Positions 15,056 to 52,033 of a stretch of DNA of 64,000 nt are shown here, one piece after another; the stretch's first letter is position 1, and the number at the start of each line of letters is the position of its first letter. Origin of the DNA: Raillietiella orientalis (lineage: Eukaryota); contig JAYWIR010000006.1 of the NCBI GenBank assembly GCA_036172245.1, forward strand, positions 2,852,001-2,916,000, given 5' to 3'. The notes below the pieces were generated by a model that worked only from the letters and a program-made list of their open reading frames with translations, was not told the DNA's origin and ran no database searches. The position numbers were made by a program, and so were the translations under genes.

Positions 15056-15968
15056 CCCAGTGTCGCCCGCCTTCCCTTAGGGACGCAAGAGGCACCGTGA
15101 TCACGGCAAGGTGGAAAGTGATTTGCTGCATGAAAGCAAAGAAGAAACCATAGGGTGTGGACAACACGGGGAGTGACGGACGATGCGACCCCGAGCGTCC
15201 CGCCCCACGGACTTCTACTCTGGGGAGATCTGCTCGGCATCCCTCCGGAGGTGGTGAAGTGGCTCCCAGCGTGCTGGAACAGTGGCGCACTCCCCCTCAA
15301 GTGGCAGGATTCGGCGTTCCTGGTGTTGCATGGGGGAATCCCGTGCAAAGCGCGCCTTCACCACTGGACACGGGAAGCGTGGACATTCAGTGCGACAGGT
15401 GCGAGAAGAAGGAGACCATCCCGCACCTGTTGTTGGACTGTGCTTCCCTCCGACCTCTTTGGGATCACCTCGCGACGATCCTAGGCATCCCGACGGGCGG
15501 CCCCAGGAACATTTTTGAACGCCTCTTGGCGCGTGCCGGTCTGCCGCCAGCGGCGTCCTTTGCAGTTCTCTGCCGCATTCGTGGAATCGTGGCAGAGTGG
15601 AACGCCGGAATAGGGCAGAATGGCAGGGACGCCATCCACTGGACGTGGATCTTTCTGAGCACCGCCTCGAGATGGCCTCACCTGTGCGCTATACGGACGG
15701 AACTTGCCGGCATCCTGAACAAGATGCAGAGAACGCCTGGCCGCGTACCGTGATCACTTCCTCGGCATGATTTCCCTTCTCCCGTTTTTGCGAGTTTATT
15801 TGTTTTGTTTTTGTTTTCCCTTCCCCCACGCTGCCGAAGGTGACCTCACCGGTCTGGCTACCGGTCCTCGGCAAGTTCATTGCGCGTGGTAGAACAAACG
15901 GTTCCATCATGAAAATGTATTTTTGTTACTAACGTAATAAATGTCCCGGCGTAACCAGGTGAGAATCA
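15056..15968 (+). mobile_element. 5'-truncated Tx1/L1-like LINE: ORF2 C-terminus (zf-RVT-like region, CCHC) and 3' terminus
   Basis: WNSGALPLKWQDSAFLVLHGGIPCKARLHHW..VDIQCDRCEKKETIPHLLLDCASLRPLW (frameshifted). AATAAA at 15936 is followed by the hairpin terminus. Confidence 0.85.
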
Positions 15969-20389: not shown

Positions 20390-21960
20390 TGGTTTATCAA
20401 TCGGATATGCCGGGGCATTTATTTAGGAAAAATAAAAATACAATGAATTTTCTCGTGGTGAACCCAAGGCTCACCACGTAACAACAGCTTGCTGGTTGCC
20501 GATACAAAGACCGGCTAGGTCCATCCAACGCGCAGAGGTGGGAATAAAGTCAACAAAAAGAAACGAAAAAAATCAAACGCGGGGCGGGGATGAATGTCTG
20601 GGGGTGGGGAGGGAGGGGAAGGAAGGGATCACTATGTGCGCGGATGGATCCTCCAGATCCTGCTCAGGATCCTAGCAAGCCGAGTCCTACTTGCGCCCAG
20701 GTGGGCCACCTGGAGAAGTTTGGCACGAAGATGCGAGTCCAGTGGATGGCATCCCTGCCATTCTGCCCTATTCCGGCGTTCCACTCTGCCACGATTCCAC
20801 GAATGCGGCAGAGAACTGCAAAGGACGCCGCTGGCGGCAGACCGGCACGCGCCAAGAGGCGTTCAAAAATGTTCCTGGGGCCGCCCGTCGGGATGCCTAG
20901 GATCGTCGCGAGGTGATCCCAAAGAGGTCGGAGGGAAGCACAGTCCAACAACAGGTGCGGGATGGTCTCCTTCTTCCCGCACCTGTCGCACTGAATGTCC
21001 ACGCTTCCCGTGTCCAGTGGTGAAGGCGCGCTTTGCACGGGATTCCCCCATGCAACACCAGGAACGCCGAATCCTGCCACTTGAGGGGGAGTGCGCCACT
21101 GTTCCAGCACGCTGGGAGCCACTTCACCACCTCCGGAGGGATGCCGAGCAGATCTCCCCAGAGTAGAAGTCCGTGGGGCGGGACTCTCGGGGTCGCATCG
21201 TCCGTCACTCCCCGTGTTGTCCACACCCCATGGTTTCTTCTTTGCTTTCATGCAGCAAGTTACTTTCCACCTTGCCGTGATCACGGTGCCTCTTGCGTCC
21301 CTAAGGGAAGGCGGGCAGCACTGGATCAAGTGAGGTAGACGAGGCCCATCGCATCTTCTGTGGGTTTCGGACGATCTTCTCCAACGACATGCGAGTGTTG
21401 ACGTCTCGCTGCAGGCAGGCATACCCCGCCTCGCTCGAGCCGTGAATCTTTCTTCAGGAGAAGACCGACTCTTGAAGTCAGGCAGTGCAGTTCGAGGAGA
21501 GACAGGAGATCTAAGTGTTCTCATGCACCGGGACAACCATCTGGAGGAGTTATACCCGCAGCGCGTCAGCAACCTCTCGGGAGCGACGAGGAGGGATTAC
21601 TCCTCGCAACCGGTTGCGCTCTTCGCGAGGAGCCATGATGGTGGGTACCAGGGTGTGGTCCACAATGTTGCCACGAGGGCGAGTCTTCTGGATTGGAGCT
21701 GGCGCTCCATCCTCATGGAGTAAGGAGACTCAGTCCGCCGTCCTGACGAGGAGCACACAAGTCACCTTGCCTGCCTGGGAGGCTTTGTAGTGCGAGGTTC
21801 AGCCCAAAGGGAACTGTCTACCTCTCTGTTGAACCCCTTTATGAACGCTCTCCCATTCGAACCGTCACTGACCAGGAGCACGGGATCTTGAATCTGAAGA
21901 CGAGGACACGGCATCAGTGCATCATGAAGATTCGTGGATGCAGATGGAATTTCACAGCTT
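20390..21960 (-). mobile_element. Tx1/L1-like LINE, ORF2 C-terminal third and 3' terminus, inserted into the preceding LINE copy
   Basis: ORF 20664-21572 contains VDIQCDRCGKKETIPHLLLDC. Terminus aataaatgccccggcatatccgattgataaacca at 20390-20423. Confidence 0.85.
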
Positions 21961-32817: not shown

Positions 32818-33511
32818 ATGCCTACATGGGGACAGATTCAAGCACAATTGAAAAATCCAACTAACCCAGTTGTCTTTATGGATATAAGTGTTGGGACAAC
32901 AGTAAGCCCTTGTCATTCTTTTTGTCTTACCCAAATGTGCTTCAAATTTTAGGAGATTGGCCGAATGATATTTGAACTTTTTGCAGATGTAGTGCCACGA
33001 ACATGTGAAAATTTCCGGCAGTTTTGTACAGGAGAATACAAAAAAGATGGTGTTCCAATTGGATACAAGGGTTCTATCTTTCATAGAGTCATCAAAGACT
33101 TTATGATTCAAGGAGGTGATTTTGTAAATGTAAGTAATTTAATCCACACCCTGGACACCTTACTTGTAAACTTTACTTCAGGGAGATGGGACAGGAGTTG
33201 CAAGTATCTTTGGTGGCATGTTTGTAGATGAAAACTTCATTTTGAAACATGAAGGACCAGGTCTCTTGTCTATGGTAAGTATATTGATGTGGTATTTTCT
33301 AATTTTCTTGTAGGCAAACAGTGGAAAAGATACAAATGGTTGCCAGTTCTTCATAACCTGTGCAAAATGCGATTTTCTGGATAAAAAACATGTTGTATTT
33401 GGTCGTGTTATTGATGGATTGTTAGTAATGCGCAAAATAGAAAATGTACCCACTGGACCCAATAACAAGCCAAAAATCCCTGTAATAATATCCCAATGTG
33501 GGGAAATGTAA
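32818..33511 (+). CDS. PPIH: Peptidyl-prolyl isomerase H (U4/U6 snRNP cyclophilin H), 183 aa; exons 32818-32901, 32953-33129, 33182-33274, 33314-33511
   Basis: [105 protein letters not shown] introns of 51, 52 and 39 nt keep the frame. Confidence 0.96.
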
Positions 33512-33524
33512 TCTTTTGCGACTT

Positions 33525-36453
33525 TTATTTTTTTTTACCTCTGGGATTGAAGATTGTGAATTTGTTGGAGTGTGTTCTGCCCTTGAAGCTCTACAAAAAC
33601 ATGACACATTCTAGATATATAATTACCCATCCTTACCTTTAATTTCTGGCCAATCTGTTTATGCATTTGGAATGCATTTCTGGTATGCAGAATTGATCCA
33701 TTGTGCTGGAACATGCTGTAGTCAACAGAAGCATAATTGTAAGATTGGAAAGGTGTGAATGGTGGATTTGGAAGCAGAGGTGCATGCATTTGATTATGAG
33801 AAGTTTGGAAAGAGGTTAATGGCATATTGTGGATTCCTTGCTGATTTGAAGGGAGCTGGTTAGGTATGTCATGATGGGATTTGTGCTTTAAAGTACATTC
33901 AGAATTGGAATTATGGAAAAAGTAATGCTTCTTCTTCTTTGTTTTAAAAATATTGATTTTCGTGATTTTCTTCATATTCTGCATTTGACTGACATTTAGA
34001 TCATGGTCATTTTCGTTTACCACTTGATTTCCAGTTTGTACATCACACACATTACTAGGATGTTCTCTAGGTACAGATGCATTGCTCTGCACTACATCAT
34101 TAGATGATTTTCTCCTCTTGAATTTCTTCTTGATTTGGTTAAGTATTTTTCGTTTCTTATTCGGTTGGCTTTTTTGAACAGAACCTTCAACTGCAGCATC
34201 CTGGTTTTCAGCAGACAACTGAGACACATTTTCTGAAACCTCATCTGTGGGACATGACTGCTGACCAGACTTGTCCTGTTAAATGATTTGTAGACTTAGT
34301 TAAGAGCAAAATATTATTTACCTTCTTATTGTCATCAGTCTTTTGCTCTGCTTCATTAAGCATCTTTGTTGCTAAGTATCGGCTGTAAGGGCTAACAAAG
34401 TTTTCACAAAGCACAGATTTTACTAGTTTGTTTTCTTGAAATAGAGTTATGCTGGGATGTGACTTAACCTGCCAAGCCTTTGAGAATTTTGAAGGGGTCA
34501 TGGTTACAGATGACTTATTTTGAGATTGAGGTAGTTCATGAGGGCAATAAATCACACTATTCACATCAATTGCTGGATGGCTTTCTACCAAAGGCAATTC
34601 CTGACCAGTAGGCTGAGGTACAAGTGATTGTTCTCGGACATGCAAAACTATTTGATGTAACTCTAACAAATATTGTTTCACTAAAGGAGGCACTGGATTA
34701 CAGCATGCCAATATGCCCTGCATCTCACGGGGCAGTGTTTCAGCAATTGTAAGAAGCATATGATTGGGTAACACATAACCAAGAGATTCATCCTGTTCTC
34801 TGGCCACCTGATCACGCCATTTAAATAAATCACGCAATGCACACAGCTGGCGGTTATTGAATTGTTTGCAGCTTCGTTCATATAATTCCAAGTGAGAATT
34901 GGGTGTTAGCATAGGTTTGTAATAGCGCAGACAACAGACCAAACAACTCTGATCCCAAACAGCCTTCAGCAATTTACTACCACCTTTTTCAAAAAGTTCA
35001 TTTCTTAATCTACTATAAATGTAAGGTAAAAAATGGGAATCCATACGAGCATAGTGAGCCATTTCTTCTGAAAGAGGCCGAATGCGCCAATCTGCTAATT
35101 GAAACCTCTTGTTTGTTTCTATCTGACAGTAGTGCTGCAGTAAGGCTGCCAATGACAATCCTGACAAACCCAAATGCCTTGCAGCTATAAATGTATCAAA
35201 CATGTTGACTAAGTAAAGACCCAGATCTCTCTGTAGCCACTCCACATCATGAGTGGCACCATGCAGAATCTTCACTATGTTTTCATTAGTGAACACCTCA
35301 TTCAACTGTTCCAGATCATCTCTCAGTTCCAAAGCATCCACTAAGTAGTCCACATCTTTTGTGGATATTTGCAAAAGGCATGTAAGACCCTGATAGCTTC
35401 GATAAGAATGATGCTGAAAACATCACACAGAACCACCTGTTGCATGTTACTATCTCTAGCTTACCTCCACATCCACACCAATTTCTTGATGGTTTCTAAT
35501 GTGATTCATCATGTCAGTGAGCTTCTCCACTGTGTCCACAAAATGCAGGGGGGTATCTCCAATTGCTTTAGGAGTAGTAATTGTGGCAAGACACAGATGC
35601 TCATCCTTGGGTTGGAATAGTTCCAATTCATATTGATATGGATGTGAGTAAACTCTAAAAACCATTATGTGAATTATTCTCAGAACTCTTACTCTTGGCC
35701 ATTTTCATCAAATTCCAAAAGAATGGCCAATGGTTTTTTAGAATTTGGTTTATTTTTTATGGTAGGTACAAATGGTCCTGGGCTATTATCAATTTTTGTT
35801 TTAAATTTCAACTGGGGTCTCACAATATTCCTTGCTGCTAAAAGAGTGATTTCTGTTGATTCATTTCTTCTGACTCTCGTCTGAAAATTGTTTTTGGAAA
35901 GCACTTGATCAAAACATCACTGACCACTTGATTCCAGATGCTATTTGCTGGAATTTTACGAGTGACAGACGTTAGAATAACAGGATCTGATACTTTCTTT
36001 AATCCTTGCAAATCATCCAAAATGTTATTCTGATAACAAAACTCATTTTTTATATTCCCAAAACACAAACATTATTAGCATACCACTCTTTCTAATGCTT
36101 GATCATTTGCATCCATGATTCGTTCATACATGGACTCCACATCATTAGGCCAAAGTTGCTTTTTTATTCCTTGATATTGCAAAAGACATGAGATTCTAAA
36201 GGCAGAAAACTCATTGCAACAAGTTATTCTCAAAAAATTATCGAACGTACAAATTAAATATTCTACTTCCTTCAGCCTTAATAACATCTCGAAACCTCTC
36301 AAAACTTGAATAGTAGTCCCAATCATCTCCTGCACCTGGTAATTCCTTCGCCTGCTTAATAGCATTCAGAGTTTTATTAATAATCTGGCTTGCTATGTCA
36401 TTTGTTAAAGCTTTATCTTCAGATGCTTGCTTTTCGTTTGTGTCGTTCATCAT
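33525..36453 (-). CDS. EXOSC10: Exosome component 10 / Rrp6 3'-5' exoribonuclease, about 864 aa; exons 36251-36453, 36084-36195, 35925-36029, 35693-35880, 35465-35654, 34322-35413, 33637-34275, 33525-33590
   Basis: PMC2NT-like N-terminus (LPGAGDDWDYYSSF), ARNIVRPQLKF, DEDD motifs (VDVEHHSYRSYQG, LHGATHDVEWLQRD, YARMDSH) and HRDC (WRDQVAREQDESLGYVLPNHML). All introns are GT-AG and frame-preserving. The last intron is inferred; read-through would stop at 33535. Confidence 0.95.
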
Positions 36454-42351: not shown

Positions 42352-45289
42352 TAACTGCAGTATTATAGTCAAGACATTGGAAATAAGTAATTTTGTTGGA
42401 AGGGCTTTCTGCATGAATTTATGGAGTATACCAATTCAAGGCAAATGTTGCATCCTCCCTCTTAGATTTAAAACAGTTCTTTTTATAAAGTACTGATATG
42501 TGATGAGAAATAAGTGCTATGATGTAAGACAGTATATTCTGTAGGAAAATGTAATGGATATTCAAGAACAGTTATAATCAAGGAACGTTAGAAATTGCGA
42601 TTAACTTTTATTTTTCTGATCTTTACTGTTATGAAAAAAAAAAAAAAAAAAAGAATTGATGTGGTTTCAGAAGATAAATAAATATATTGAAATGACGAAT
42701 GGCCTTTCGAATTTCCGGAAAGTTTTTGGAAATTTTTGATATTTTCAAAAAAAATACTTTTTCTAACCATTTTCTAATTCTAAAAATTAAGATTTCCAGA
42801 AAAAATTCAGTTTTTCAACCAGTAGTTTTTCTGGTAACATCTCCACGCCCTGATCATTACTGATTGTTCAAATATTTGCTTTTGTGGATGGGTTGAGCCA
42901 TAAAACTTGCAAGTATGCAATATTGGTTCGATTCTTTACTGTGTTGTTAGCCACATCGGACGCTCGTAAATTCTAATGGACTATTAGAACTTACGAATGT
43001 CTAGTTGCCATTCTTTCGAGTGGCAATCTTTCCCACCTGTGACTTCAACATTTACGGTCTCTCACACGAGTTTGTGCTCTCATATCGCAGACCACTTTTC
43101 CAAGTGCCCACCAACAGTTTTGTATTTAACCTATGACTGGTGTCGTGCAACAGATCGGCGAAGCAATGCAGTCACGAGCCACGTGTACTCTTAAGCACTT
43201 CTCTTGCACCTTATTCCACTCATCAGTTGATCCATAGCCTTGCTGAGGTCATATTCGACTAGACATCTATTGCTGTGGGGGTTTGTTGGATCACGCGTCC
43301 TCATATTTAGCCTCTTAAAAAGGAAAGGGAATTATGCTCTTTGTTAATGTAGTTGCTATGTCGAGATTACTGGTAAGGGTTGGCTGAAACATCGTAGTGA
43401 CGTCATTTTGAGTGCCTTCCCTATAAGTTGGAGTTTCCAACCATTAACTTTTGCTCACGATATTGCCTTGCAGACTCTTATGCACGATGAGATCGTTCTT
43501 CTTGTGTGGGGCACTTGTAGTCGTGCTGGCGCCTTCCCAGCCCTGGCAATTTCGAGATTCATTATGTTTCCAGAGTTGCATGCTGCATTTTTGTTTCCAG
43601 AGCTTTTCCATCTGAAAGATTAGCTTCCTCGGCATGAATTGTTTGTTTGTGTAAGCTCCTGATAGGAATTATCGATTGGATGAAATTAATGGCCTTCCCC
43701 ATGTTGACTTTAGTCGTGCACATACAGCAGTATCTTTGCTGCGATTCACTTTAAATGCATGGCTGGGGAAGCAGCTATCTTCTGGAATCCCTAAAGATCT
43801 CTTACCTCCTCTTGCTACAACATCTGCAGCAACCTCTACTTTCGGCGTCTCACACTCAGGTGCAGTGCATCCGTACATGCACCTCAAGCAGATGCATTCA
43901 GACAAAACATGACCGCAAGCGCTTCTGGCGCTCTAGCCAGTAACATCCTGCTTGGAATCAGAGACACTAATTTTATGCGTTTAACCTTGGTACCTTTGCC
44001 GTTGCTATATTGCAAAAGTTATTTCGATCTGGTGAAAATTAGAGCATCGTTTGAGTAGGATTTTGTAGAATCTCCCTTCTGTTTCCCAATCATTGCTTTT
44101 TCTCAAGAAAAAAACTCAAAACTACCTCACGCAATCCCTGTTCTCTTCAAATCGGTCGGAGGAAATTGCGGCTGAATACGTGGCATAAGACACACGATAA
44201 CGTCATCAAATGAAAAAAAAGCAAAAAAAATTTTGTGTGTAGCCCACTTCCTCCTGCCCTCTCTGGCAGTGGTCTCACTGCACATTTTGAGGAGGAAGAC
44301 TGGCAAGGCTCGTGCAAGACGGTTGAATTGTCAGTTGACCTATCTCTTCCGGTACTTTTTCGAGAAATTTGGGCTCGGCTATTCAGGTAATTCTAGTTCC
44401 GGGTTCTCTGACAGACAGCAGACTGAAAAGGACTGGCACTTAAGCATGGATTCGAGTAACCGGTAGCGAGGTGGCAAAGGGGGCAACCAGAACTACTTTA
44501 GAGAATATCAGAAAATCCTAAAATCCTAGAAAACTTCCAATTTGTGCAAGTCTTTCCTCGTTTCAGCAATGAGCTTCATTCTTCAAGGACAAAGAACCGG
44601 TGAGATTGCTCTTCTTCTGGGCACCACAGCAACCAGAAGAATCAAAGCGAGGCGATGATTTTCGCTATTGTAGTGGAAAAGTAGACTGTTCTCTTTATGC
44701 ACGATTTTCAGCATCCTTTGCTGTATGTGAGCCTGTGCCGGAAAAGCTGTGCCTTTCAGCTCCTCGCCGCTCCATCCTCAAAACGATCTGAGCGAGATGA
44801 ATAACACAAAGACAGATGCCACAAACAGTCGTTGTTTCAAAACAGCACATATTCACTTTTTGACAGAATCAGTAAGATAGATCCACTTGGAACGCTGTCT
44901 CAACTTCCATGCATTCTGTGGTACCATCTCACATGAACCGCTTCATCCCGTCAATGGGACCAGAGGGCCGTGATATTTCGTCATTGTTTCATCATTACCA
45001 ATCAAAAGAAGAAGGAGAAAAACGACGCTCAGGAAGATCGCCTCCAGGTTTGATGAACAGAACATGCAAGTGCACGTCCGACCTGCAGAAAACGTGCTCT
45101 AAAATACTGAGATCGAGAAGACCAGTTTCGCCAGATGTCCATGCAAGCATAATAAGCCCGTAGACGTGGTTCTGGTGGCAGAAGTGCATCCCATCATATT
45201 GGTGCGTACCTCCTGTACCGTTGCACCACGGACTGCTGTTCACTTCATATGAACAGTTGGGATAAGGAGGCGCTCTCTCGGCGGCTTAC

Positions 45290-45830
45290 GAAACTCTTTA
45301 ACACTGTTCCAGGCCACCAGGAGGTGGATGCTAACTCTTCAAGTTAGGAGGTACCCCGGGAAGGGGCAACCCTGTGAATCCGATGAGGGCTCCAAATGAT
45401 GGAACCCGTTCCTTTTACTCTTGGGAGGAAACCACGGAGGGCTATTCTTTCTTATTCTCTCTGGAGGGATCTTCCGGAGGGGTTCACTCCATTATTTTTT
45501 CTCCGAAGGGAACCCGGAAAGGATGCGCTCTTGGAATTTCCTCTCCTGAGGGAACCAGTGAGGGAATAGCTCTCTGTCACTCTCTTTACAGAAAAGTAAC
45601 AAAAAGCAGACGTTAAAGGGAGGAGCGCACTTCACACTCTGAAGAGGTATAAGTCCACTAGCTCCATGGTACGGCTGCATTTGCACAACCGGAAGAGAAC
45701 CTTGAAGGGTTCCTTGATTCCTGGCAGGACCCCGGAATATTTTCTTTTAAATCCCAGCCATTCAACAGGAGCATCTGGTTTCCGGCTTCCACCAGTTCCG
45801 CACTTAAAGTGCCTGGGCGTTCCGTTGTGG
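45290..45830 (-). mobile_element. Copy of the dispersed repeat module
   Basis: Reverse complement has tgcggaactggtggaagccggaaacc, ccaggaatcaaggaa, ttccggttgtgcaaat and cttgaagagttagcatccacctcctggtggc. Confidence 0.6.
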
Positions 45831-46430
45831 GACTTCTGCTCCACAAAAGCTCCAGCCGTCTTCAGAAAGCACTGCAGCGCTCGGCCCGTTCCAAAGAAAC
45901 GAGTTTCATCTGCCGGAACGGACCGTGGTGTGAAACACGTTCATGATCCCTCCCCTCCGCCCCCTGCTTTTTGTTTGCCCCCACTATGCAGAACTAGAAA
46001 GCGGACGAACGACCTTCTCTGGATCGCCCTCTGGGGCAAAGGGAGGTCCCGAGTCCTCCTAAAGGACTTGTGTGCTTCGCGCCGGGATGGCGGCCTAGTT
46101 CTCCTGACGCTGGAGCGAATGAAGCTGCAGCTCCAGTTTCAAACACTGGCTCTCATGGAAAAATTCTGGAGCACCATCTGGTGCCAACCTGCATGTCTTC
46201 TCGTCCAGCAAGCCACCGATAGCGTGGGACTCTAGTCTTTCCTTGCACGCCTTCCACGCAGCCTCATCCAGTGCGGACTGCGCCTTCGGCAGGTGGTCAC
46301 GCTGGTCAGGAAAAACGGATGGATCTCGTGCCACCCCTCGCGAACGGTAGTTCCTGGTCGCAGGAAACCGTTCGCACGTGAGCGAGGATCCAGGAGCCAA
46401 GAACGGAACAGGTGTGACGTTTCCTGTACG
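45830..46430 (+). mobile_element. Tx1/L1-like ORF2 fragment just downstream of the RT core
   Basis: LLWIALWGKGRSRVLLKDLCASRRDGGLVL matches the L1/Tx1 FLW.GK...V....L......GGLGL motif. Homologous to 27130-27400 and 21570-21790. Confidence 0.7.
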
Positions 46431-49107
46431 CGCACAACAACAACTGCACGCTCCCGGAGATCCTGGAAGATCCCATGAAGATTGCGTGGGCAAGCAGAAC
46501 CTCCCTCGTCGCCGCGCTGCCCTTCCTTAGAGAACACTTGGGCAGCAGCCTTGCGGTTATCGGACTGTGTTACTGTGAAAATCTTTGGAAGGAGAAGAGG
46601 ACTGGACGAGTGGACGAAAGCTTAGCATCAGTTGGCTTCATTTATAAAAGTTTTTCATGTTGAAACATACATATGCAAGATGATATCCATTTGCATCTAT
46701 CATTTCATCTATTTGCATTTGCATGTATGTCGTGACTGCGAAACCAAAACTGTGGATATGATTCATATCAAAGTATTACTTTATATGCTATTGTTTGCCT
46801 TTGTGTATTCGCACATACCATGGTCTTAGTTTCAAAAACTTTTTTATTTTACTTTTGAGTTCCCTTATGCTGTAGCTCTCATAATTTGTTTACTCGTATT
46901 TTTAAGAACTACTATTCATTTTTAGAAGTTATTGGAGGTAGTGTGAAAGTACCATGTACCAAGAAAGAGGAAATTCTATAATATGCGGTTGGAATTTCTC
47001 ACGACACAAGCAGATGCATAAAAAGAGCTTCAAATTTAAACCAATGAAATTGTGAATTAGTTGCATACGCTTCATGTTATTTAGAGGCTTACTGTTCCTT
47101 TAAGGCATCTCGAAAGCATCGTTTCCTGAAGCAAATTTATGATCTTGAGAAATCGCCATATTACACTTTGAAATGGATATTTCATGTACTTTAGCCGGCT
47201 TTCTATCTTTGGAATAAGATCCCTTCTTATGAATCATGAATCGGAGTGAAATTTTCCATTCCAACTGAAAAAGAAAATCAAAGATGAATCAGAGATGCAC
47301 AATCAGAAGAATTCATATAGACTTGAGCGTGTTTCTGCAAACTAAGTCTTTTTTTCTTGCTTTCTCTGTAATTTTCCATGGAGCCAAGAACTTTTTTCTT
47401 ACTTTCTAGAGAGCGCCATCGGAGAGGCTGCTGTCTTCTTTTCGAACTGATCACCTTCCTAGATCCTATATAATTAGATAAGTGCCTAATGATGCCAAAA
47501 AGCTAGGTATGAAAAAGGATCTGTTATGCAAGAGAACGTTCAGGAACCCTAGAAGACATGCTAATGAAATATCATGGGAGATCAGACGGATCAACACACT
47601 GAAATGAAATCTTATCCCAAATACGCAGAACAGAGACCACCGAGGAACAGATGAAAGTTTGCAAATGAGAAGACGAACAGAATTGAATCTCTAGGAGAAG
47701 CATCGGATGCGACTCGTCAGAAAGCCGGCAGTCCACATGGTAGTCTATGCCATAAGAGTTGGAGTGTTGCAATGGTATGCAAGGTACTGGTAAAAGGAGC
47801 TAAAAACTCAGAACATTTACTAACAGAAGATTCCATTTGACATACTGTCTCAGATGCTATCACCGCTATTACGACAACTATCAACAGCAGTTAGGTGATA
47901 ATATGGAAACTGTAAAGGAGACGCATCACAGTGCAGCTCAGTACTAGTGTTCTCATCAATAGTAAGCATTCTCATCATCTCCATGACGAAATGTAATCTC
48001 TATCTGGAAACGGTCCATACTGCTTCTGGTTACAAGGTCAAATTTGCTTATTTGCTATACCTAAATGAATAAAAAGGGGTGAGAGTTCATTGTTTGTTTC
48101 TATTAAAGATCATTCAGAAGAAGAATATACGGCTAAAGTGGAGCAACAATCTAACATGATACTTTTCCAAACCAGTCCTACAAGTAAATGGATTAAATAC
48201 TTTTCCAATGTGACAATTATAGCTTACTGTATATTCCTAGAAGACCCATACGTCCGAGAAACGAGGTAGTACAGTGCATCTGCATCAGGAACAGAGGTTA
48301 TCCCAATCTTGTTCAAAAAACTAGAGAATCATCAAAAACATATGCTTTTGTTTGCAGTCCACAGGTGACTTCGACAGAATGATATCCGTACTTAAAGCGA
48401 ATGGAGACTCCATAGTGTGCGTGTTGCTTTTTTTATACTGGGAGAGTGGTTGAAACCAGGAAATGCTTCACATGGCAGAGAGAGAAAAAAAAGAAAAACT
48501 CCTAGGACACAAAACGAAGTAACTATGTCGTCTCCAGTCCTACAAGCAGAGGGTGAATTTATTTAAGAGACCTGTATAGAAAAACAATGTTTGCACGAAG
48601 GGCAACAGTTTTTTTTTTTTTTTTTATGTCCTAGTTCTTGAATGCACTCAACGTCACTTTTTGGTAGGATCCGTATTTTATGTCACTGGGGTCTGGTCAC
48701 TGGAGGATCTTCGGAGCTGCTATCGCCTGGTCATTATCCTTATCAAAACCACGTCGCGTTTCCATGCTTACGGGTTTGCAGTGCGATCTGGTCTTGGTCT
48801 TATTTCCATTTGAGGACAGGTATTCAAATGGTGCCATTTACGTACAGGCTGATTCTGGTAGCACTGCTTCGTTTCGATTGCATGCTTGAACACGAAAGTG
48901 CAACTGATTGTTATTTGGCAAGAAAGAAAAATCAGTTGCCGTTACCTTCGTTTGCCGTTCCCGTTTCAGCTACCCCGACGACCGCTGCAACCCCCCGGAT
49001 GTGGCGTCTGTCTTTGTTCTGAGTGCACGCAGCCAGACGCTTGCTGGTGATCCCAGCAGCCAACCCGTTCGGCGACTCCGTGCCTGCAGCCAGGCAAACT
49101 GTTGGTG

Positions 49108-50310
49108 ATGTCCGGTCAGCCCAACATTAAACAAGGTAATTATGTGCCAGAAATGGAAGGCTTGAATTTCGCGAGATTCTCGTCAATTACTTGTGATCGC
49201 TGAGGCTCTCGATGCAGTTTTCCCAAGGGATTGGTATGTTTACACCAGTACTGGTGCAGTGTGAAGTGCGTTGCACGGGAAGAAGTCGTGACCTGTGTTT
49301 CCTGACGTTACCTAAATGCAACCCGTGATGGCAGTTTGCTGAAGTCGTGTGTGTTGGACGACGCGTGTATGTCGAGTCGTGCTGCCCGGGAATCACCAGA
49401 GTTGAATGCGACACGCGTGTTGCAAGGGTGGCAGTGTGTGCTATGTGTTCGTGCATCGTTCCTCGGTAATCTTGCAAGGAACTTTTCCGTCTTGTTGCAG
49501 ATGATTGCTCCTGTAGTTTGTTTTTTGCCATTCCGGAACAGAACCAGATTGCGATGGTGCATAAACTGAAGTGGGAGTTATCCTGAATTTGATCTATATT
49601 TGTAGAACCCCGTTTTCCTGCGAGGCATTGAGTGAATGGCAAGTTTTCGAAATACAGCCAACAGCATTCATTTGATCATTTGCTCTCTCTATACTCGAGC
49701 AATCTGATGGTCATAATCGTTATGCAGCATTTCATTATATTTCATGATGACAGTACTGTTGAATTCACTATGGCAATTTCTGCCTGATTATTATATGGCA
49801 CGGTATTTGTTGGTGGCATAATTTCATTGAGAAAAGATTTGATAGAAAGGCTTTATTAGGAAATCAGGGCGAAATGGATTTCTATAACTGTTAATGAAAA
49901 TTAAGCATCCTGGATAGCACCCAAAGTACTTTCAAAATTTTTCATTCCAAATATAGAACTCCAAAATAGGAAAATTCTGGAAGAGTTGCAGCTTCAAAAG
50001 AAGCAGCTTTTATCAAAGTCTGGGTCTGTTAGCTCTGTTAAGCTTACACCTTCTTTGCCAGCAAATGTGCCATTCAATGTAAGTGTTCTTCAGTTGATTT
50101 TCAGCATTATATAAATATTGTGTACATGATCTTCATTTGTAGCCTATTAGCATGCCCTATGATGGTCAGCATATGCTCATTTCATCTCAACAAAGATCAG
50201 CACTTCAGCATGCCCAGATGACTTCGCCAGGTTACTTTATTCCTCAGGATTCTGCATTTGGAAATTTAATTTTACCAGTAATTCCTCGACTTGAGAAATC
50301 TGAAATGTAA
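49108..50310 (+). CDS. INIP: SOSS complex subunit C (INTS3/NABP-interacting protein), 105 aa; exons 49108-49135, 49957-50078, 50143-50310; missed by the ORF track
   Basis: MSGQPNIKQ|ELQNRKILEELQLQKKQLL...|...QQRSALQHAQMTSPGYFIPQDSAFGNLILPVIPRLEKSEM*. The C-terminal GYFI.QDSAFGNLILPV.PR is the SOSS-C signature. Introns are 821 and 64 nt; exon 1 is the least certain. Confidence 0.9.
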
Positions 50311-50356
50311 GTTTTGGGTAGGTTTGGGGTAATAATGGTATCATGTGTGCCAGGCA

Positions 50357-51007
50357 ATGAAGCGTAAGCAGCTGGAAAGCAAGTTGGAGCCGCTACAATC
50401 TTTCACTCATCCAAAGGTTCATTTAGAACAGTATGCAACATCACCTCATATTGCCAGTTGTATGTTGTTCTCTATTGAATATAGTTTTGGAGAAGTGAAA
50501 AACCAGCTGGTAGCTGATCTAGGCTGTGGTTGTGGTGTATTAACTGCAGGATGTTCTTTACTAGAAGTTGGACATTGTGTAGGAATTGACATTGATTGCA
50601 GTGCTTTGCAAGTGGCTGCTGCAAATATGGCAATGTTGGATGTGACATGTGTGGATTTTTTGACTGCAGATGTTATTGAAGAAAACATAGGTCTATCTTT
50701 GAAGCAGCAGTTTGACTGTGTGATTATGAATCCTCCATTTGGTACTAAGCATTTTCCTGGTGCTGACTTGGCCTTTTTGAGACAAGCGTTTCTGTTATCC
50801 ACAGGATCTGTTTATTCATTGCACAAAACGTCTACCAGATCACATGTGATAAGAAAGGCAGAGCAGTGGGGAGCTGAAGTGGAAGTACTGGCTGAACTGC
50901 GCTATGATCTCCCTCGTAGTTACAAGTTTCACCAGAAGAGTTCAGTTGATATTGAAGTGGATTTCTATCGATTTGATGTACAAAATAAATTGAAGAAACT
51001 TCAGTGA
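50357..51007 (+). CDS. METTL5: 18S rRNA m6A methyltransferase METTL5, 216 aa, intronless CDS
   Basis: PKVHLEQYATSPHIA, SAM-binding ADLGCGCG, catalytic NPPF, VYSLHKTSTR, AELRYDLP.SYKFH.K.SVDIEVDF.RF. Confidence 0.96.
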   Translation: MKRKQLESKLEPLQSFTHPKVHLEQYATSPHIASCMLFSIEYSFGEVKNQLVADLGCGCGVLTAGCSLLEVGHCVGIDIDCSALQVAAANMAMLDVTCVDFLTADVIEENIGLSLKQQFDCVIMNPPFGTKHFPGADLAFLRQAFLLSTGSVYSLHKTSTRSHVIRKAEQWGAEVEVLAELRYDLPRSYKFHQKSSVDIEVDFYRFDVQNKLKKLQ

Positions 51008-52033
51008 AGTACAAGATCACAGAAGTTCGCGTCATTCATTTTTTTAAGGTCACATATAAAACAAATTATGAATATTTCTTGGTTCACCAGAACGAAAAGT
51101 TTGTTAAGTGTATGTGGTGTACCTAGAGCATTAATGTTGCTGTGAACTAAACCAATGAAAAAAGAAAGTGGATTGTGTCTGTGAACTACTAACTACTTTC
51201 ATTGTAAATTAAATAAATAAATTGAAAAGATGAGCTTCTTTAAAGAGTGTGCTAGTGAAGTGGTTTTTAATGAATGGAAACCTAATGGAATTGTAGAAAC
51301 TGCATACATCCCAGTGTCAGCATCGACTGGATTCTGGTTCACGAAATCCCTCGATTTCACCTTTTCAAAGGTAGCTTTCTCCTGTTCTTGCACACCTTTG
51401 CTGTTACAATCCCCATTAAGCTTCCCACGTTTGAAATGTGGCTGTGATTTGTTTCACAACATCAGATGATGGATTAGCAGATATCTCTTGCTGCTCTTGG
51501 TGCTGCATGATTTACTGCATGCTTCTGTGCAAAGCTTTTCTGTAAAGTTCTTTTTTGAGTTTGGATTCTCGAGTTTCTCACAGTGATCCGAAATTTCATG
51601 TTCCTCAGTACCAAGGATAAAAGGAATCAGATTTTGTTCTAGCAAACCAGTGGGATATGTGTGAATGGATATGCTTAACGAATCAGCAATGATGTCAGGT
51701 AACTGTGGGTTACATGTGGTTTTGGAGTGCTTTGCATAATCATGATGGTTGTAACTGTACGCCAGCATGTCCCATACCTTGTCATGTTAGAGCCAACAAC
51801 TTCACCTGTGCCTGGTGCAAAGGCATCATTTGTTTGTGTCCTTCAAGCAATACGTCGATGTTTGAGTTACAAGAGGAAGGAAAGGTTCTGTTGTACTTCA
51901 CTGAGCAATGGGATCCACTGCCCATTTGTAGCTTTAAGTATGTTTGTGTGCCCTGATGCAAAGTGCTCTCATTGGGCCCAGTTCATACTTGCATGGGTGT
52001 CCTCCTGGGAATTCTGGACTCTGTGAATGCTGT

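Follow-up and report, generated by a model that had tools for sequence, protein, structure and literature searches.

In Drosophila melanogaster, the Mettl5 gene CG9666 is annotated together with an upstream partner, CG42374, as a pair whose transcripts FlyBase classes as "all di/polycistronic", with the second coding sequence starting 11 nt after the stop of the first (FlyBase; Crosby et al. 2015, PMC4528330, supplement). According to the entries for this pair, a small gene shares its 3' untranslated region (FlyBase; PMC4528330). A conserved-peptide upstream open reading frame (uORF) of 129 aa was also described on the CG9666 mRNA and followed from Diptera to Artemia by expressed sequence tags, or ESTs (Hayden and Bosco 2008, PMC2276209). 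We analyzed a stretch of 64,000 nt from contig JAYWIR010000006.1 of Raillietiella orientalis, hereafter the window, in which two unrelated housekeeping genes, INIP and METTL5, lie 46 nt apart on the same (+) strand; all position numbers below are those of the whole window. An earlier note on this DNA had presented the two genes as a candidate dicistronic unit. That reading is strongly supported by orthology, namely by 47 of 80 related loci and by the FlyBase pair, but the unit is not new, because CG42374-CG9666 and the upstream ORF of CG9666 have already been published. CG42374 is called a SOSS-C homolog elsewhere; the passages of the cited papers that treat the pair do not name the upstream ORF INIP or SOSS-C, and our search of the literature on METTL5 dicistrony and uORFs found no paper that names it INIP or traces the pair past those ESTs. 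We propose, at a probability of about 0.5, that the locus is orthologous to the INIP-METTL5 dicistronic gene of arthropods and that splicing of a mini-intron and termination-reinitiation drive METTL5 in it.

The features of the unit are as follows.

49108..49135, + strand: first coding exon of INIP (SOSS complex subunit C), beginning with its ATG; donor aag/GTAATT, joined in frame to exon 2
49136..49956, + strand: INIP intron 1, 821 nt, the sole long intron of the unit; GT and AG ends checked, removal required for the open 105-codon frame
49957..50078, + strand: INIP coding exon 2, open frame, containing the NRKILEE..KKQLL motif
50079..50142, + strand: INIP intron 2, 64 nt, donor aat/GTAAGT
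50143..50310, + strand: INIP coding exon 3, including the TAA stop of the unspliced form at 50308-50310; Pfam SOSSC
50307..50353, + strand: candidate mini-intron, 47 nt, aat/GTAAGT ... GTGCCAG/gc, with GT and AG sequence ends
50335-50337 and 50343-50345, + strand: two out-of-frame spacer ATGs, both within candidate intron 50307-50353
50357..51007, + strand: METTL5 (18S rRNA N6-methyladenosine methyltransferase) ORF, 216 codons, intronless
50357..50360, + strand: ATGA, in which the stop codon that INIP would use after splicing overlaps the METTL5 start
50984..50989, + strand: first AATAAA 3' of INIP, 15 nt ahead of the METTL5 stop
51208..51221, + strand: ATTAAATAAATAAA cluster, the likely poly(A) signals of the INIP-METTL5 unit, with AATAAA/ATTAAA at 51208, 51212 and 51216

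Homology bears out both gene names given in the earlier note. The translation of INIP exon 3 matches the Pfam family SOSSC (PF15925, 2.1e-17), and the three INIP exons join into a single open frame of 105 codons. The METTL5 ORF (216 aa) matches human METTL5 (PDB 6h2u, 4.5e-68) over residues 2-208 and contains NPPF; a protein search with it returned 2135 homologs, and those that carry names are METTL5. When sequences were compared by eye, the NRKILEE..KKQLL motif of INIP was also seen in two related loci (L051 and L056) and in the upstream ORF of Drosophila CG9666. A retrocopy was considered for the intronless METTL5 and dropped because its match is single and unbroken in all 80 related loci, including those flanked by kilobases of sequence.

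What the earlier note had read at the junction of the two genes was found again in full. The INIP coding end, ATG TAA, occupies 50305-50310, the METTL5 ATG occupies 50357-50359, and the spacer is 50311-50356; neither AATAAA nor ATTAAA occurs between 49958 and 50983. A GTAAGT begins at 50307, overlapping the TAA, and an acceptor CAG ends at 50353. Joining 50306 to 50354 gives GAA ATG CAA TGA, in which the TGA at 50358-50360 overlaps the METTL5 ATG as ATGA and INIP becomes one residue longer, its end changing from ...SEM to ...SEMQ.

The METTL5 alignment was used to pull 80 METTL5 loci from metagenome contigs, and INIP was sought in them with the exon 3 peptide. The earlier note had suggested looking for synteny in relatives, and INIP lies directly 5' of METTL5 on the same strand at 47 of the 80 loci. 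Grouping at about 90% METTL5 identity sorts these 47 into 28 clusters; every upstream ORF tested against Pfam was SOSSC (7/7). Among the 33 loci without an INIP match, 17 are uninformative, since their sequence reaches less than 300 nt upstream of METTL5, and 16 have room yet no INIP, most of them in tree clades distant from the animal references. Within the clade of 29 rows of the METTL5 tree that includes the copepod reference, INIP is present at 27 of 28 loci, and the 28th (L055) ends inside METTL5. Since the same order and strand recur at 47 of 80 related loci, the adjacency of the two genes, judged by this comparison, is certainly beyond chance.

Several of these contigs also give a view of the transcripts. 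Runs of A stand at several of the 26 contig ends inspected, and 14 of the 80 contigs share a 22-nt 5' leader within their first 15 bases, followed by unrelated sequence. This leader, GCTTGATTCACTTCTACAAGAG (at most 4 mismatches; L001, L002, L003, L006, L007, L008, L011, L021, L028, L030, L034, L037, L039 and L040), presumably serves these crustacean-like organisms as their spliced leader, and its bearers belong to the 29-row clade with the copepod reference. Because INIP is uninterrupted in the leader and A-run contigs but split by introns in the window, the contigs look like processed mRNAs that carry both ORFs. After the leader comes INIP in 11 of these 14 contigs and, in the other 3, FRA10AC1 ahead of INIP; in no contig does the leader adjoin METTL5, and therefore even animals able to trans-splice would appear to keep the pair on one mRNA. 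Some copepod-grouping contigs (L006:1-2796, L011:1-2974, L003, L033, L026 and L046) hold a longer row on one strand, composed of FRA10AC1 (PF09725), INIP (PF15925), METTL5 and profilin (PF00235), with FRA10AC1 upstream in 5 loci and profilin downstream in 7 loci; L011 extends from the leader to an A-rich end. The row looks like a spliced-leader operon in which INIP-METTL5 is left uncut. For the window, the orthologs make it highly probable that a single promoter upstream of 49108 gives one mature mRNA with both ORFs.

Among the 28 related clusters the spacer varies in length between -4 and 204 nt and is no longer than 50 nt in 21; stop and start overlap as ATGA in L022 and L041 and as TAATG in L051. 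ATGs are scarce in these spacers: their 1107 nt contain 3, where 15.7 would be expected, and the cluster representatives are ATG-free in 25 of 28 cases. The spacer of the window contains 2 ATGs in 46 nt, as unconstrained sequence might (at least 2 appear in 34% of shuffles), and arithmetic from the spacer counts puts two in 46 nt at less than 1% if the rate of the relatives is applied. The ATG at 50335 opens a frame that crosses the METTL5 start and ends at 50365-50367, and the one at 50343 opens a five-codon frame ending at 50358-50360, the TGA of the overlap. Splicing of the candidate intron would delete both.

The relatives also differ in the AUG content of INIP itself. From the INIP AUG to the METTL5 AUG, 22 representative relatives have 34 ATGs against 113.8 expected, a threefold depletion, and the METTL5 ORFs of those contigs show none (259 against 234.3 expected). 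The copepod-like clade accounts for the depletion, which is absent in L056 (8 vs 8.8) and weak in L051 (3 vs 4.2); in the insect-like L009 cluster, 4 ATGs lie within 144 nt of the last INIP exon. An AUG-depleted INIP in the copepod-like relatives points to a signature of leaky scanning. The same interval of the window is undepleted, with 8 ATGs in the spliced form or 10 in the unspliced form against 5.0 or 6.4 expected. As AUG depletion differs across clades, lineages seem to translate the METTL5 cistron by different routes, some through an AUG-free INIP and others through an overlapping or near-abutting stop and start.

The candidate intron was judged against the other introns of the window. 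Five recognizable genes lie in an AT-rich block at 32-52 kb, namely cyclophilin (+), EXOSC10 (-), a BRD7/9-like bromodomain gene (+), INIP and METTL5, and 18 introns in the four multi-exon genes of the window were validated by homology and frame. Because 16 of these 18 are 38-64 nt long, 47 nt is the local norm, as the earlier note had held, and lies centrally within that range. Three further mini-introns of EXOSC10 on the - strand, 33591-33636, 34276-34321 and 35414-35464, measure 46, 46 and 51 nt; two are required for an open frame, and the third was called from its high splice score only. A splice-site matrix trained on only 18 introns gives the candidate donor 9.0 bits, and its sequence, aat/GTAAGT, is the same as that of two validated donors, one of them INIP intron 2. 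Across both strands of 32-52 kb (40 kb), 13 GT sites score at least 9.0 bits: five belong to training introns, one to a frame-confirmed and one to a probable EXOSC10 intron, one is the candidate, and none of the other five lies on the sense strand of any recognized gene. GTAAGT itself occurs six times in those 40 kb, as three validated donors, the candidate, and two copies antisense to the BRD-like gene and its downstream region. About 13 copies were estimated from base composition. With three of only six copies being validated donors, cryptic consensus donors seem to be avoided in 32-52 kb. The removal of both spacer ATGs and the ATGA overlaps of L022 and L041 likewise speak for splicing. We consider it somewhat better than an even bet that 50307-50353 is a genuine mini-intron of the 38-64-nt class of this genome.

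The sequence of events that we propose is as follows. One promoter upstream of 49108 would drive an mRNA ending after 51005 or after 51221. From at least part of the transcripts, 50307-50353 would be removed, and with it the TAA stop and the two spacer AUGs, so that INIP would terminate one codon later, at the UGA that overlaps the METTL5 AUG as AUGA. The 8 internal INIP AUGs would prevent scanning ribosomes from leaking through to METTL5, and ribosomes finishing INIP would restart on the overlapping METTL5 AUG by termination-reinitiation. Since the 8 to 10 ATGs inside or after INIP rule out leaky scanning, reinitiation fits the window as the route to METTL5. An intron-retaining transcript would keep two decoy AUGs with frames across the METTL5 start and would yield little METTL5. 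We also suggest, although we regard it as doubtful, that this lineage dropped leaky scanning and that the stop-straddling mini-intron acts as a splicing-operated translational switch on METTL5, with retention as the off state. Loss of METTL5 is reported, in a Drosophila preprint and in other work, to alter uORF-dependent translation; because of this, if the proposal is true, the METTL5 enzyme could feed back on its own reinitiation-dependent synthesis.

Several observations weigh against this proposal, most of them against the intron. Its acceptor scores 0.0 bits, below all 18 validated acceptors when these are scored in sample (minimum 3.8), and in a leave-one-out comparison it outscores just 1 of the 18. 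The candidate is 36% G and 6% C, and the 16 validated mini-introns contain 12-28% G. A yTnAy branch motif was not found in the candidate, which is uninformative, as it is also missing from 5 of the 16 real mini-introns. The two strands of 32-52 kb together contain 3494 GT-AG pairs spanning 38-64 nt, and 172 score at least as high as the candidate, 15 of them validated introns; the pair by itself is therefore not significant, and the splice matrix was rejected as proof of an intron since it does not separate the candidate from chance pairs. A comparable intron was seen in none of the 47 related INIP-METTL5 loci. In those that are genomic DNA (the L009 cluster of 11, L005 and L045) a short spacer is encoded directly, and the 167-nt spacer of L056 holds no convincing intron like the candidate. 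The proposed restart faces difficulties of its own. Reinitiation past an ORF of 105 codons is usually inefficient, and UGGGA (TGGGA), the 18S-rRNA-complementary motif of calicivirus-type termination-reinitiation, does not occur in exon 3 at 50143-50306, the last 164 nt of INIP. Applying the rules of the relatives to the window is itself uncertain, because METTL5 identity to the nearest relatives is only 56% and the METTL5 tree leaves the window on a long branch without firm placement. The best identities found for the window in protein searches were 57% for METTL5 and 59% for EXOSC10. The EXOSC10 tree places the window outside the insects (support 92/98) and outside chelicerates plus lophotrochozoans (98/94), and its position next to Daphnia and a barnacle is not settled.

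Among the alternatives, the one we take most seriously, although we judge it unlikely, keeps the dicistronic mRNA and retains the 47 nt, so that INIP ends at the TAA of 50308-50310 and the METTL5 start follows 46 nt on; resumed scanning, internal entry, or a relay via the five-codon frame from 50343 would then bring ribosomes to it. It would account for the weak acceptor, for a G content beyond the range of real mini-introns and for the lack of an intron at that place in any relative, and spacers of 32-49 nt do exist in three related clusters (L001, L011 and L037). Nor do the two spacer ATGs need a special cause, given that about a third of spacer shuffles produce as many. What it leaves aside is that these out-of-frame ATGs stand where 25 of 28 related lineages have none, the first of them crossing the METTL5 start, and that the sense strand carries a GTAAGT at the stop codon, when the other sense copies in recognized genes are all real donors. 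Leaky scanning, by which 40S subunits would bypass the INIP AUG and arrive at that of METTL5, would suit the AUG-depleted copepod-like relatives; the undepleted INIP of the window brings it close to refutation here, and we give it hardly any credence.

The two other alternatives would place METTL5 on an mRNA of its own. If the acceptor CAG at 50353 were a spliced-leader trans-splice site, as the earlier note had suggested as its own alternative, a polycistronic precursor would be resolved into an INIP mRNA and a METTL5 mRNA beginning with leader-GCA-AUG. The AG 3 nt ahead of the METTL5 ATG suits this arrangement, as does the common 5' leader on mRNAs of the copepod-grouping relatives, and trans-splicing would remove all upstream AUGs and so explain the lost AUG depletion. 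However, what is known of nematode trans-splicing suggests that the acceptor would pair with the consensus cis donor lying 47 nt before it, no poly(A) signal precedes the acceptor to end an INIP mRNA, and all 14 contigs with the leader carry it ahead of INIP or FRA10AC1 and never beside METTL5. A leader-like string (at most 5 mismatches to GCTTGATTCACTTCTACAAGAG) was not found in the window, nor was an Rfam spliced-leader RNA, which is weak evidence from 64 kb only. The spliced-leader site is thus disfavored, and we think it very improbable. Slightly more credible, though still improbable, is a separate transcription start for METTL5 within INIP, in intron 1 or exons 2-3, with the adjacency persisting as a relic. 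INIP intron 1, at 821 nt, is far beyond the local norm and could contain regulatory DNA; the lost AUG depletion would mean that METTL5 is translated independently of scanning through INIP; and many dicistronic loci also yield monocistronic transcripts (FlyBase; Crosby 2015, PMC4528330). On the other hand, the FlyBase record of this particular pair lists only di/polycistronic transcripts. Any start upstream of 50345 would leave AUGs before METTL5, with 11 nt beyond the last one, and INIP is retained at essentially every locus of the copepod-reference clade that can be judged (27 of 28).

Outside the unit, the end of the cyclophilin gene (33495-33510, +) reads GAA ATG TAA, identical to INIP in its final nine bases, and continues with TC, not GT; we take the common end to be a coincidence. 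Between the bromodomain gene and INIP, about 6.5 kb (42400-49000) contain no recognizable gene and four strong donor-like sites, at 43805 (-), 45209 (-), 46818 (-) and 47775 (+). Downstream of METTL5, a 79-codon ORF at 51230-51466 (+) begins 9 nt past the ATTAAATAAATAAA cluster, directly after an AG; it matched no Pfam family and has no counterpart in the 80 METTL5 loci. Neither FRA10AC1 nor profilin, between which INIP-METTL5 lies in copepod-like contigs, was found in the window, and Rfam gave 0 matches over the whole window at the gathering threshold, hence no spliced-leader RNA family. The flanks of the window are GC-rich (55-64% G+C) with long ORFs in all frames, and two ORFs at 15134-15481 (+) and 20900-21247 (-) have near-identical translations in inverted orientation with about 5.5 kb between them. 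These flanks, with the inverted ORF pair, are probably copies of a transposable element around the AT-rich gene island at 32-52 kb. During the EXOSC10 comparison a lamprey protein annotated as uncharacterized (P0124) was seen to contain three tandem copies of the EXOSC10 exonuclease/HRDC region, and the lamprey was rejected as a close EXOSC10 relative because its score of 827 bits is inflated by this threefold domain.

This locus adds a further example of an ancient two-gene messenger, in which a DNA-repair and Integrator-associated peptide is joined to the enzyme that methylates 18S rRNA. Four points have not, as far as our search went, been found in print: that the Mettl5 upstream ORF is INIP/SOSS-C, that animals with leader trans-splicing, which could separate the pair, nonetheless appear to keep it on a single mRNA, that lineages seem to differ in the route by which METTL5 is translated, and that this genome may make a stop/start overlap by splicing. 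The creation of AUGA by splicing is a plausible hypothesis, reasonable and testable. If the intron is real, the locus would offer a simple natural system in which to study, on a cellular mRNA, termination-reinitiation and how intron retention controls it.

Termination-reinitiation is best known from viruses, including calicivirus VP1/VP2 with its termination upstream ribosomal binding site (TURBS), influenza B M1/BM2 with UAAUG, and victoriviruses with AUGA. An overlap of the AUGA type after a long ORF would be present in the window only if the transcript is spliced, the unspliced distance being 46 nt, and the UAAUG form is found in the related locus L051. The differences are that the INIP-METTL5 messenger would be a cellular mRNA, that UGGGA is absent from the end of INIP, and that the overlap would be made by splicing, for which we know of no precedent. 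Because UGGGA is absent, the locus is not a member of the calicivirus TURBS class, even if it should work alike. Operons resolved by a spliced leader occur in nematodes and tunicates, and the window resembles them in having same-strand genes tens of bases apart and an AG just before the downstream ATG; it differs in its cis donor and in lacking an upstream poly(A) signal, and its leader-bearing relatives appear to keep one mRNA. In green algae, conserved nuclear bicistronic loci are described as using leaky scanning with a tunable second ORF (PMC11892635), but they belong to another kingdom and to other genes, and leaky scanning does not fit the window. The Drosophila genes stoned and Snapin are reported to have dicistronic mRNAs translated via an AUG-free first cistron (Wall, Phillips and Kelly 2005, J Biol Chem 280:27670, as cited in PMC4528330). 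The copepod-like INIP-METTL5 mRNAs, with their threefold AUG depletion before the second start, resemble these; the INIP of the window is undepleted, so the mechanism of the AUG-free cistron does not fit it. The closest system remains CG42374-CG9666, to which the window, known from sequence alone, corresponds in that both gene families are present in matching order and orientation, with a very short spacer. The fly upstream peptide and the INIP of the window share NRKILEE..KKQLL and FIPQDS.FGN..PRLE when compared by eye only. The two loci differ in that the fly has 11 nt between stop and start and the window a genomic spacer of 46 nt with two ATGs, which the candidate intron would turn into a 4-nt overlap.

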